A stretch of 41,210 bases of DNA from a virus (taxonomy: Duplodnaviria; Heunggongvirae; Uroviricota; Caudoviricetes): the IMG/VR virus record IMGVR_UViG_2880406838_000008; one strand, given 5' to 3'. Both the position numbers and the translations under genes were made by a program. How positions within the stretch are numbered: position 1 is the stretch's first letter; each line of letters begins with the position of its first letter. The notes below the pieces were generated by a model. The model saw only the letters and a list, made by a program, of their open reading frames with translations, was not told the origin of the DNA and did not search any database. Of this stretch, positions 30,194 through 31,918 are shown piece after piece.

Positions 30194-30218
30194 AAAAAAA
30201 GCCCCTCCGGAGAGGGGC
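30194..30218 (-). terminator. tR'-like terminator of the late leader transcript
   Basis: Minus-strand GCCCCTCTCCGGAGGGGC hairpin followed by TTTTTTT, about 130 nt downstream of the candidate PR'. Confidence 0.6.
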
Positions 30219-30358
30219 ATGTTTGCATGCACATTCTTTTTCTTGCATGGTGCCGGGTGCCTCCCGGTGAATTCAGTATCAGCACCTGAATCCGCGATTA
30301 TCACATATACCTGGTTGCTGATTGCCCCTCCGCACAGGGGGATTCACCATGCAGTAGT

Positions 30359-30389
30359 ATTTTTAATAAACAGCAAATAAAAAAATCAA
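30359..30389 (-). promoter_or_regulatory. candidate late promoter PR'
   Basis: Minus-strand TTGATT, 17-18 nt spacer, TAAAAA(T), positioned upstream of the tR'-like terminator and the late genes. Confidence 0.35.
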
Positions 30390-30549
30390 GCATTATGCAG
30401 GCTGTTTCTTTTTATCACCGGCTACAGCAATACCACAATGCCGCAGACCAGCACCCCATCCGCCAGCACCGACATGATTCTGCTGGTGAAATCCACCATC
30501 ACCACCAGAAACAGCAGGAGTGCAGCCACAGCCAGGCGCAGTTTTACCG

Positions 30550-30687
30550 TCACTGGTGATTCTCCAGACGAAGACCCAGAACACCGGCAATCTCTTCCAG
30601 CACCTTGCGCTCTTCCGGCTCAATTATTTCTGACGTAAACGCGGACAGCGCAGGCTGATTACGCAGTACCTGTTCGATCTTCGATTT
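30550..30687 (-). pseudogene. 45-codon ORF remnant in frame with the replication gene after a TAG; possibly the 3' end of a deleted gene
   Basis: Reads KSKIEQVLRNQPALSAFTSEIIEPEERKVLEEIAGVLGLRLENHQ-stop directly after the TAG at 30688-30690; no start codon or RBS of its own. Confidence 0.3.
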
Positions 30688-31416
30688 CTAGGAAGCCTCA
30701 CATTCACCATCTGCACAGGCCACCAGGTAGGCAGCATTAATAACCGCCTGTGCCATCACGATCCGCCCCCAAATCCACTGCGCACACGCCAAATCCTCCC
30801 TGCTACCCCACTGGCGTTTTTTCGCACTAAACACAACCGCGTCGGGGTTCCGGATTAAAAAATCCTGTTCAGCGGTCTGCGGGTCCGGTTGCGAAGCTTC
30901 CGGACGAAAAGTGTTTTTATTCTCTGTAGTAATCTCTGTTGTATTCTCTGTAAGATCATCAGGCCATTTTGACCCGATGACATTGGGTCGTTTTGAACCA
31001 ATGGAGCGTTTCATTTTGACCTCTTCCATCGTGTCATTTTGACCTGATGGAGCGGCGCATTTTGAACCGATGGATTCGTTCAATTTGCCACCATCTAAAA
31101 GCTCGTTCCCATAGTTGATCGTGTAGAAATTGGTCATATCGCGCTTTGATTTATTGAGCTTTTCACAACGCAAAAGCCCCAGCGTTTTCAGACTTGCAAA
31201 CGCGCGCTTTAACGTTGACTCTGACCAGAATGGGAACTGTTCCAGCCATTGTTCCGTTGTGTTGTAAATCCAGCGAACACCATCACATTCCATGCCGGAA
31301 TTGGTATCTCTCAACCAGTAATGCAACTGCTGCAACACAATGGCTTCATTTAAGCCAATCTTCATCGCAAGCTGTGTGTTTATAACCAGTGGGCGTTCAG
31401 CAAAAAGAAGGCTCAT
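30688..31416 (-). CDS. replication initiator protein (O-like; phage replisome-organiser N-terminal domain)
   Basis: N-terminal HTH-like region (LAMKIGLNEAIVLQQLHYWL), then the origin iterons encoded as repeated SIGSK peptide units; sits where lambda O would be. Ends at TAG 30688. Start ambiguous between 31416 and 31470. Confidence 0.65.
   Translation of the reverse strand: MSLLFAERPLVINTQLAMKIGLNEAIVLQQLHYWLRDTNSGMECDGVRWIYNTTEQWLEQFPFWSESTLKRAFASLKTLGLLRCEKLNKSKRDMTNFYTINYGNELLDGGKLNESIGSKCAAPSGQNDTMEEVKMKRSIGSKRPNVIGSKWPDDLTENTTEITTENKNTFRPEASQPDPQTAEQDFLIRNPDAVVFSAKKRQWGSREDLACAQWIWGRIVMAQAVINAAYLVACADGECEAS
30964..31095. repeat. replication origin iterons inside the initiator gene
   Basis: Six copies of about CATTTTGA(C/A)C(C/T)GATGG spaced 22-23 bp apart (30964, 30989, 31011, 31034, 31057, 31080). 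Confidence 0.6.
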
Positions 31417-31918
31417 AATTCCATCCAGCTTTTTGTTGGTATTGCTGTCGATACGCAAGTTTGAAAGCAATTGCTTTTTCTATAAGTTCGTCAGTTTCAC
31501 GATCCACTACGGCAGGATCAGCAAAAAGCAGTCCGGACTCCACCACATCGCCATATTCTTTGTTTAACCCGGCGATCATGTACGTGATGCTTTTTCCGTC
31601 ACTAATTTCACGATACAACCTGAAATCATTAATCCGGATAGCCTCCATAATTGCAGGCACTAGCGCCGTGAACTTTTCACGCTTATCCCTAGTGTCGATA
31701 GCCTTCCAGCGTTCGAATATCTTCACTCGATTAACGCCAAGCGCTCGCTGATCAACCGCGCCACCTTCATCTGTGACACGCTGAACATCGATGTTCGGGC
31801 GCTCTTTCAAAGCCCAGAATGATTCAGTGATTAATATCGTCGCCTGCTCCTGTGTCATTCCTGGTCGACATATCCAGGCATCCAGAGCCTCACGAGCCTG
31901 TTCAGGAGTGATTTTCAT
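31397..31918 (-). CDS. hypothetical protein at the cII position (possibly YdaT-like)
   Basis: 173-aa ORF between the cro-like gene and the replication gene, overlapping both; function not recognisable from sequence. Confidence 0.45.
   Translation of the reverse strand: MKITPEQAREALDAWICRPGMTQEQATILITESFWALKERPNIDVQRVTDEGGAVDQRALGVNRVKIFERWKAIDTRDKREKFTALVPAIMEAIRINDFRLYREISDGKSITYMIAGLNKEYGDVVESGLLFADPAVVDRETDELIEKAIAFKLAYRQQYQQKAGWNYEPSFC

Follow-up and report, generated by a model that had tools for sequence, protein, structure and literature searches.

We analyzed a 41,210-nucleotide stretch of Caudoviricetes DNA (IMG/VR record IMGVR_UViG_2880406838_000008; hereafter, the window), concentrating on positions 30194-31470, where the early-right genes of a lambdoid prophage meet its late genes. 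The window region matches chromosomes of the Escherichia coli O111 lineage at 99.7-100%, and the prophage lies beside rspB, the Qin site, with its genes on the minus strand. Its tail, head, and lysis genes look complete, and it also carries nanS-p and an early-right module of cro, YdaT, and O-like genes. A reading made earlier from the sequence alone (hereafter, the original prediction) had seen in this segment a deletion that took the helicase-loader gene, the nin genes, and the gene of the Q antiterminator while sparing a PR'/tR'-like late leader.

For comparison, we used the corresponding prophages of 95NR1 (L001), E2855 (L004), E2863, and 08-3342, plus a further allele in OkiPb01689 (L015); relatives and alleles were sought in a collection of 5,426 complete E. 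coli genomes. In the relatives that bear Q, the gene order is cro - ydaT - O (321 aa) - DUF977' - rusA' - Q (lambda-Q family) - short leader - tciA' - tciB - STnc100 - nanS-p. The features found in the window, together with the alleles at the junction described below, are collected in Table 1.

Table 1. Features around the junction in the window, and alleles of the junction in the window and its relatives (alleles written in + strand orientation; IS, insertion sequence; sRNA, small RNA; ORF, open reading frame)
Feature	Position or sequence	Strand	Basis or remark
cro-like gene, intact, heads early-right operon	31902..32129	-	Pfam P22_Cro E=4.5e-16; annotation in relatives
YdaT / CII-like gene, intact	31397..31918	-	Pfam PF06254; phrog_163
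Truncated O-like initiator (O'), codons 1-220 of 321	30756..31416	-	translation; 100% identity to residues 1-220 of full-length protein
Five origin iterons (YRTTTTGAMC) inside O' coding sequence	30957..31072		repeat search; motif count
Three tandem 12-bp A/T-rich repeats (TATTCTCTGTAG-like) beside iterons	30918..30953		repeat search
Deletion junction (probable IS-excision scar)	30755..30756		sequence ...CCTGTGCCA / TCACGATCC...
tciA pseudogene remnant (TerB-like)	30550..30755	-	BLASTP against JLK-2012 TciA; tblastn; PGAP "internal stop" in relatives
tciB (DUF3927), small cargo gene	30422..30553	-	Pfam PF13064 E=6.8e-12; phrog_1470 E=1.6e-21; annotated in relatives
-35-like TTGATT, STnc100 candidate promoter	30384..30389	-	sequence; TTG conserved in four divergent loci
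STnc100 sRNA gene	30188..30378	-	Rfam RF02076, 143.3 bits against gathering 47, model 1-206/206
AgvB anti-sRNA gene, tail to tail with STnc100	30126..30187	+	Rfam RF02702, 96.5 bits against gathering 56, full length
Second intrinsic-terminator-like hairpin, just upstream of nanS-p	30080..30101	-	consensus scan
nanS-p (DUF6645/DUF1737 esterase), first late-cluster gene downstream of scar	28124..29974	-	ORF; identical gene annotated in E2863
Intact tciA allele	...GCCA GAT CGCG...		ancestral
Allele of E2855 and many O111:H8	...GCCA GAT [IS1203] CAT CGCG...Q		IS inserted in tciA', downstream of Q
95NR1 allele	...GCCA CAT CGCG...		IS and GAT gone; variant right-hand copy kept (excision footprint)
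E2863 allele	...GCCA GAT [IS1203] TCA CGATCC...		O codon 220/221; all from IS right end to O deleted
Window allele	...GCCA TCA CGATCC...		E2863 minus 1,310-bp IS and GAT
08-3342 allele	...GCCA GGT TCA CGATCC...		IS-free scar; GGT is native O sequence
OkiPb01689 allele (L015 1156-2465)	inverted IS; flanks ...CCTGTGCC and CCCCCAAATCC...		distinct allele, same junction

Pairwise BLAST and the junction sequences of 95NR1, 08-3342, E2863, and E2855 place the breakpoint at 30755/30756, which is 68 bp upstream of the TAG (30688-30690) where the minus-strand ORF ends. The original prediction had let the initiator end, and the break fall, at that TAG. The ORF does stop there, and the same frame does run on for 45 codons to a TGA (30550-30552), as it had stated; however, translation shows that the 220 codons of O' read in frame into 22 codons of tciA, giving a 242-aa O'::TciA' fusion, before the TAG is reached. 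These 22 codons and the 45 after the TAG form one tciA pseudogene, which keeps codons 24-67 and 120-142 of the 143-aa protein and has lost 52 codons internally. Since the TAG lies inside tciA, where it replaces Glu46, and is present in relatives that retain Q, we rejected it as the breakpoint; it is an older nonsense mutation within the pseudogene. Alignment with related prophages confirms a deletion that fuses the initiator gene to the tail of another gene, as had been proposed, with tciA as the remnant. The spacer of about 160 bp that had been described downstream of it actually holds tciB.

Relative to 95NR1, 1,590 bp (L001:3857-5446) are missing, and no part of them matches anywhere in the window. 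On the tciA side, the missing sequence comprises the first 23 codons of tciA and the spacer between Q and tciA; it then includes Q itself (229 aa; Pfam PF06323, E=2.7e-83), the 3'-terminal 29 codons of rusA, a DUF977 fragment, and O codons 221-321.

The sister alleles show what lay at this junction in other genomes. In five of them, IS1203 directly abuts O codon 220/221; the junction was read directly in E2863 only, and RM9131, RM9975, 110512, and 14614 have the same match geometry. The E2863 element is flanked by GAT and TCA, i.e., without a target-site duplication, and its GAT is ancestral tciA sequence. Because E2863 keeps these ancestral bases (ATC in coding orientation), which the window lacks, and because the flanks are not duplicated, the IS-bearing state cannot derive from the scar, and the sequences give the direction of change as IS-bearing to IS-free. 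The removal of the IS plus 3 bp accounts for the difference between the window and E2863 and likewise for that between 95NR1 and E2855: the "empty" tciA' site of 95NR1 is explained by the same loss of IS and ATC, with the variant upstream copy ATG left behind.

Two further alleles and an older border extend this series. In 08-3342, GGT of the native O sequence is still present, unlike in the window and E2863. A separate deletion with its end 3 bp further into O is the best reading of this scar, while a single 3-bp indel could also produce the difference; this near-identical scar is already annotated as pseudogenes in RefSeq. Compared with the window scar, the flanks of the OkiPb01689 element are shorter by 1 nt in tciA' and by 10 nt in O. 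The exact window allele occurs in none of the 5,426 genomes. At the DUF977'/rusA' deletion border, E2855 has a divergent IS3-family copy without target duplication (L004 7102-8412), and 95NR1 has no IS (L001 4855-4858). This border is likely an older IS-associated scar, which suggests an earlier round of the same process of insertion, deletion, and excision.

Altogether, these comparisons suggest, with a probability of roughly 85%, that 30194-31470 is the scar of an IS1203/IS629-driven deletion in an O111-lineage lambdoid prophage, in which the end of O, Q, and the Q-linked leader were lost and STnc100 was kept. This cause had gone unrecognized in the original prediction. In the proposed sequence of events, IS1203 would first insert into tciA'; everything between the right end of the IS and O would then be deleted, probably by a mis-targeted transposase strand transfer beside an O sequence that resembles the left inverted repeat (IRL) of the IS; and an excision of the transposase/IEE type would finally remove the IS. 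For the IS3 family, the figure-eight geometry of IS911/IS3 transposition predicts the loss of the IS together with 3 bp on the IRL side. The removal of the IS with GAT, the 3 bp on its IRL side, is what this geometry predicts by analogy. Precise excision of IS629/IS1203v by IEE and transposase has been reported, as have adjacent deletions of a few nt to >40 kb when IEE acts with IS629 (PMC9943667; 10.1101/2023.06.07.543989), and O111:H8 frequently carries IEE (PMC9943667). Small deletions associated with IS629/IS1203 and the IEE-promoted excision in EHEC prophages are the subject of Kusumoto et al. 2011, as summarized in PMC9943667 and 10.1101/2023.06.07.543989.

The O sequence at the break (GATCCGCCCC-CAAATCC) matches the left end of the IS (GAACCGCCCCGGAAATCC) at 15/19 positions under gapped scoring. 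In E2863, it lies exactly 3 bp from the right end of the IS and thereby mimics a junction of right inverted repeat (IRR), 3 bp, and IRL. As a site of exceptional statistical standing it was rejected, since it failed an ungapped 13-mer test (4 mismatches). We tentatively propose that O codons ~215-221 mimic the left end of IS629/IS1203 and offer the transposase a decoy "second end", which would make the loss of the 3' part of O, Q, and pR' recurrent and site directed. If so, the transposase would join a nearby IS right end 3 bp (or 6 bp) from the decoy, and this would account for breakpoints that fall within 10 bp of one another in E2863/window, 08-3342, and OkiPb01689. An IRL-like breakpoint also fits the published idea of "sloppy strand transfer" (10.1101/2023.06.07.543989).

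A different route to the same scar would need neither a mis-targeted strand transfer nor an IEE-driven adjacent deletion. If O had received a second, directly oriented IS1203, the two copies could have recombined with the help of RecA and lost the interval between them, and the resulting hybrid IS could have been lost later. The non-matching flanks of the E2863 element (GAT and TCA) are what a recombinant of two insertions should have, an insertion at GGTTCA/CGATCC in O could have produced TCA as its target duplication, and several IS1203 copies occur in these prophages. However, neither the two-IS precursor nor its O-distal junction was found (0/5,426 genomes), and this route by itself does not account for the three breakpoints in O, which differ between window/E2863, 08-3342, and OkiPb01689 but all fall within 10 bp. 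We therefore regard it as a possible but less favored origin of the deletion.

The initiator starts at the ATG at 31416, not at the TTG at 31470 that had been assigned. Its full-length counterpart in 95NR1 (L001 5142-6107), whose C-terminal part the window lacks, matches phrog_391 "replication initiation O-like" over residues 17-321 (E=1.7e-92); Pfam and NCBIfam gave nothing useful for the O-like protein, including no match to Pfam Phage_rep_O. Residues ~189-309, within a C-terminal domain that extends to 321, are separately conserved and also match DnaD-like loader families. The last 21 residues weakly match the C-terminal end of DnaT, a primosome protein of the host (E ~0.01), in a sequence search of solved structures. 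No helicase-loader gene occurs in phages with this O; the O tail may itself bring in the host factors that load the helicase. The window copy ends at residue 220/321, so that the conserved C-terminal domain, the presumed helicase-recruiting part, is cut.

On the DNA side, the initiator gene does contain iterons, as had been predicted: five phased copies lie at 30965, 30989, 31012, 31035, and 31058 (30965-31067 in all), with a spacing of 23-24 bp, and they make up five of the six matches to YRTTTTGAMC in the window (0.9 expected). The adjoining A/T-rich repeats possibly serve as the unwinding element of the origin. The origin, as marked by the iterons, and the DNA-binding N-terminus of O would therefore remain, while the C-terminal domain (~aa 189-321) is cut; the element should thus not replicate by itself, and the earlier view of a replication-defective prophage is sound in this respect. 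In principle, a helper with the same O specificity could drive the origin.

The absence of a loader gene is a separate matter. A tblastn search of the window with P, helicase, loader, and six nin-region proteins found no P, DnaB/DnaC-like, or nin gene (all E>0.02), which agrees with the original prediction that no P/DnaC-like gene is present. However, this absence is not evidence of deletion. In the phages HannyBb and PhiR42_1, a 98%-identical 321-aa O is followed directly by DUF977, with no loader gene; in HannyBb, only DUF977, a methyltransferase fragment, QueH, hok/sok, and DUF968 lie between O and Q. Because phages with a 98%-identical O also lack it, the lack of a P/DnaC-like gene is native to this type of module rather than part of the deletion.

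For Q, by contrast with the loader gene, the relatives show what was removed. No Q was found in the window by tblastn with three Q families (lambda-type PF06323, 82-type PF03589, and a 162-aa type; best E=0.22-0.67), and Pfam and PHROG scans of the remaining early-region ORFs revealed no antiterminator, so that no Q homologue is encoded elsewhere in the element by these searches. The annotation of a near-identical genome agrees in having no Q, P, or nin gene. The predicted lack of Q and nin-region genes is thus borne out, and with Q gone, the prophage should indeed be unable to antiterminate its own late operon.

The sequence adjoining Q was lost as well. In 95NR1, promoter-like hexamers TTGCAA-17-TATGTT overlap the Q stop codon (L001 4097-4069). 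Phages of the PPompW group with the same Q type have TTGCAA-17-TATATT there, a compensating change, and their homology with the Q allele reaches ~90 bp past the stop; the next ~140 bp of the 95NR1 region are instead common to Stx2 phages with a different Q. The predicted leader of ~70 nt after Q forms two hairpins ending in a U-run (z-scores -2.9 and -4.6). The Q-linked promoter/terminator unit, which in the relatives is no more than ~90 bp away from the Q stop, belongs to the 1,590 bp that the window has lost, and it is likely that pR'/tR' directly abutted Q and was deleted with it.

What remains upstream of nanS-p is an element of another kind. The original prediction had pointed to TTGATT and TAAAAA hexamers followed by a tR'-like terminator. 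These are present, with the -10-like TAAAAA at 30360-30365, 18 nt from TTGATT, and a strong terminator (stem 30201-30218, hairpin plus T-run by consensus scan); however, they belong to the gene of the STnc100 sRNA, with the conserved core of the RNA beginning near 30353. Four divergent loci, including that of phage BP-4795, where the surrounding sequence differs, keep the -35 TTG and the -10 pattern TA.AA. at fixed spacing; together with the terminator, these candidate promoter hexamers are only suggestive of a discrete small transcript. The neighboring AgvB gene has its own terminator at 30162-30181.

The element's distribution follows cargo and nanS-p. The STnc100/AgvB pair, or a single element, sits between cargo and nanS-p in E2855, PPyecE_EH1910, and JLK-2012, and phage BP-4795 has a homologous STnc100 core downstream of stx1B. 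It lies ~600-700 bp downstream of the Q stop, past tciA' and tciB, in 95NR1 and E2855, and >3 kb from Q in PPyecE_EH1910. It occurs with lambda-type, 82-type, and 162-aa Q alleles as well as downstream of stx1B; what co-varies with the Q allele is the ~90 bp after Q, not the STnc100 element. In published work, STnc100 lies 75 nt downstream of stx2 (PMC12370729), and the quantitative PCR primers for STnc100 from that study match the window sequence. Another study places STnc100 together with PasD among the prophage sRNAs associated with esterase genes (10.64898/2026.05.13.724894). We considered a kinship of STnc100 with the lambda 6S/pR' leader and rejected it, since the lambda Q-S region gives no Rfam match to STnc100. 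The retained "leader" is thus, by homology, an STnc100 gene that belongs to the neighborhood of cargo and nanS-p and is not linked to Q. Transcription from the early promoter would run through cro - ydaT - O'::tciA' - tciB into STnc100, and it should stop at two terminators before nanS-p.

These results bear on the original prediction as a whole, according to which a simple deletion took P, nin, and Q, kept PR'/tR', and left a late operon that a foreign Q could induce. Upstream of nanS-p there are indeed promoter-like hexamers with a strong terminator, Q is absent, and the late genes have no obvious damage (a split "portal" gene is also split in JLK-2012). However, the supposed leader is a full-length STnc100 match, it lies ~700 bp (95NR1, E2855) or >3 kb (PPyecE_EH1910) from Q or, in BP-4795, after stx1B, and the sequence that does co-vary with the Q allele is deleted. 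We consider this version improbable. Lambda-type Q loads onto RNA polymerase only at its cognate site in or next to its own promoter. Since lambda-type Q needs this promoter-proximal site and the Q-adjacent unit was deleted, leaving no evident cis site, activation of the late cluster in trans by the Q of a co-resident prophage, as had been envisaged, is unlikely.

The remaining alternatives fare worse. An assembler could have dropped an IS that the source really has at the junction, as in E2863, and most of the closest complete genomes do carry an IS there. Yet two other full IS1203 copies were assembled in the window, exactly the IS and 3 bp of unique flank are missing, which a repeat collapse would not remove, and the independent finished genome 08-3342 also has an IS-free scar; such an artefact is very improbable. 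That a short initiator and spacer are normal for this phage type, with nothing deleted, is next to impossible: the module natively lacks a P/DnaC-like gene, but in phages and sister O111 prophages, O has 321 aa, with 98-100% identity over residues 1-220 and 101 further residues beyond them, relatives hold Q, rusA', and DUF977' between O and tciA', and the frame after residue 220 is tciA sequence.

Several points weigh against the IS-driven account and the consequences we draw from it. The order of events is drawn from cousin genomes rather than direct ancestors. Since the window does not include the iee gene, a role of IEE would be assigned by analogy. The functional effect of the O truncation is deduced from domain boundaries. 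The candidate pR' of the relatives fails a strict consensus scan, its assignment coming from sequence and conservation only, and a standard consensus promoter scan of 29900-32300 returns 0 sites, with the TTGATT/TAAAAA pair proposed for STnc100 failing too. As for the IRL-like site, seven sites in the window reach a gapped score of 15/19, so that it is no better than six others; it would stand out by its position and 3-bp spacing only, and these were noticed post hoc.

If the IS-driven account is right, the prophage is defective for a well-documented reason, namely IS629/IS1203 activity, and the deletion with its scar is ordinary prophage decay of a kind already known in genomes of the enterohemorrhagic E. 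coli (EHEC) type. With Q and the adjacent promoter/terminator lost, the late cluster would be left without an activator and without a cis site for a foreign Q; therefore, the prophage should not be expected to respond to the Q of a neighboring prophage. For its late genes, nleG-type cargo, and sRNAs to contribute, the prophage would have to recombine with another phage or be packaged by one. The sister alleles provide a natural illustration of insertion, adjacent deletion, and scar-leaving excision, and typing within O111 could use them as a marker. Only the hypothesis of a decoy-end hot spot is mildly new.

Other features of the prophage were observed along the way. This decaying prophage has kept as cargo three genes of the DUF1076 (NleG-like effector) type, one of the Lom/Ail family, and, within the tail cluster, sodC; the coordinates, listed together, are window 1-2052 (-), 3763-4362 (-), and 8064-8591 (+). 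The DicF antisense RNA lies at 33782-33833 (+; Rfam 72.5 bits), upstream of dicB as in the Qin prophage. The portal region at 17377-19799 (-) consists of two overlapping ORFs of 454 and 353 aa and is "frameshifted" in the annotation of relatives, including E2863. In the second of these ORFs there is a 162-bp tandem repeat (17831-18213), and its product falls 54 aa short of the JLK-2012 counterpart. We rejected the portal "frameshift" as late-gene decay, since phage JLK-2012 shares the same two overlapping ORFs.

The window also contains an inverted pair of identical 1,310-bp IS1203/IS629 copies at 34325-35634 (+) and 38064-39373 (-). The 2,429-bp segment between them (35635-38063), which carries the 3' part of ydfD and most of an exonuclease gene, is inverted relative to E2863; at its edges, the exonuclease site has a repeat of the 3-bp ATC, and the ydfD site lacks one base. 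This arrangement recurs in none of the complete E. coli genomes of the collection.

Among known systems, the closest parallel to the proposed deletion is the IEE/IS629 system of EHEC prophages, with which it shares an IS3-family element at the deletion border in sister genomes, the loss of the IS with 3 bp of one flank, a deletion that starts at the IS end, and an O111:H8 background, in which IEE is common. Nothing essential differs: here the intermediates form a visible natural series, 3 bp separate the distal breakpoint from an IRL-like sequence, and IEE itself was not observed in the window. The early region resembles the Qin / mEp460-type early-right module (cro - YdaT/CII-like - O-like - DUF977) in its gene order, its 98%-identical O, its iterons inside O, and its lack of a separate helicase-loader gene; unlike that module, the window has an O cut after residue 220 and no DUF977.

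Both the lambda pR'-qut-tR' late leader (6S RNA) and the StxS leader of Shiga toxin (Stx) phages consist of a promoter and then a terminator upstream of lysis genes, and the retained element is like them in this outline only. It adjoins Q in no relative and is linked to no Q allele, whereas the unit that fits the description of the lambda pR' leader in the relatives (L001 ~4097-3990) is deleted in the window. With the STnc100 / PasD sRNA family, in contrast, the element shares a full-length model match, a place between cargo (stx or tciAB) and nanS-p, and AgvB or AsxR nearby, and we found no difference. Finally, cryptic lambdoid prophages such as Qin and Rac of K-12 and the defective prophages of O157 Sakai have lost replication and regulation genes stepwise while keeping cargo. 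The window prophage resembles them in both respects, having retained its nleG-like DUF1076 genes, sodC, and sRNAs; unlike them, it still has a largely complete set of structural and lysis genes.

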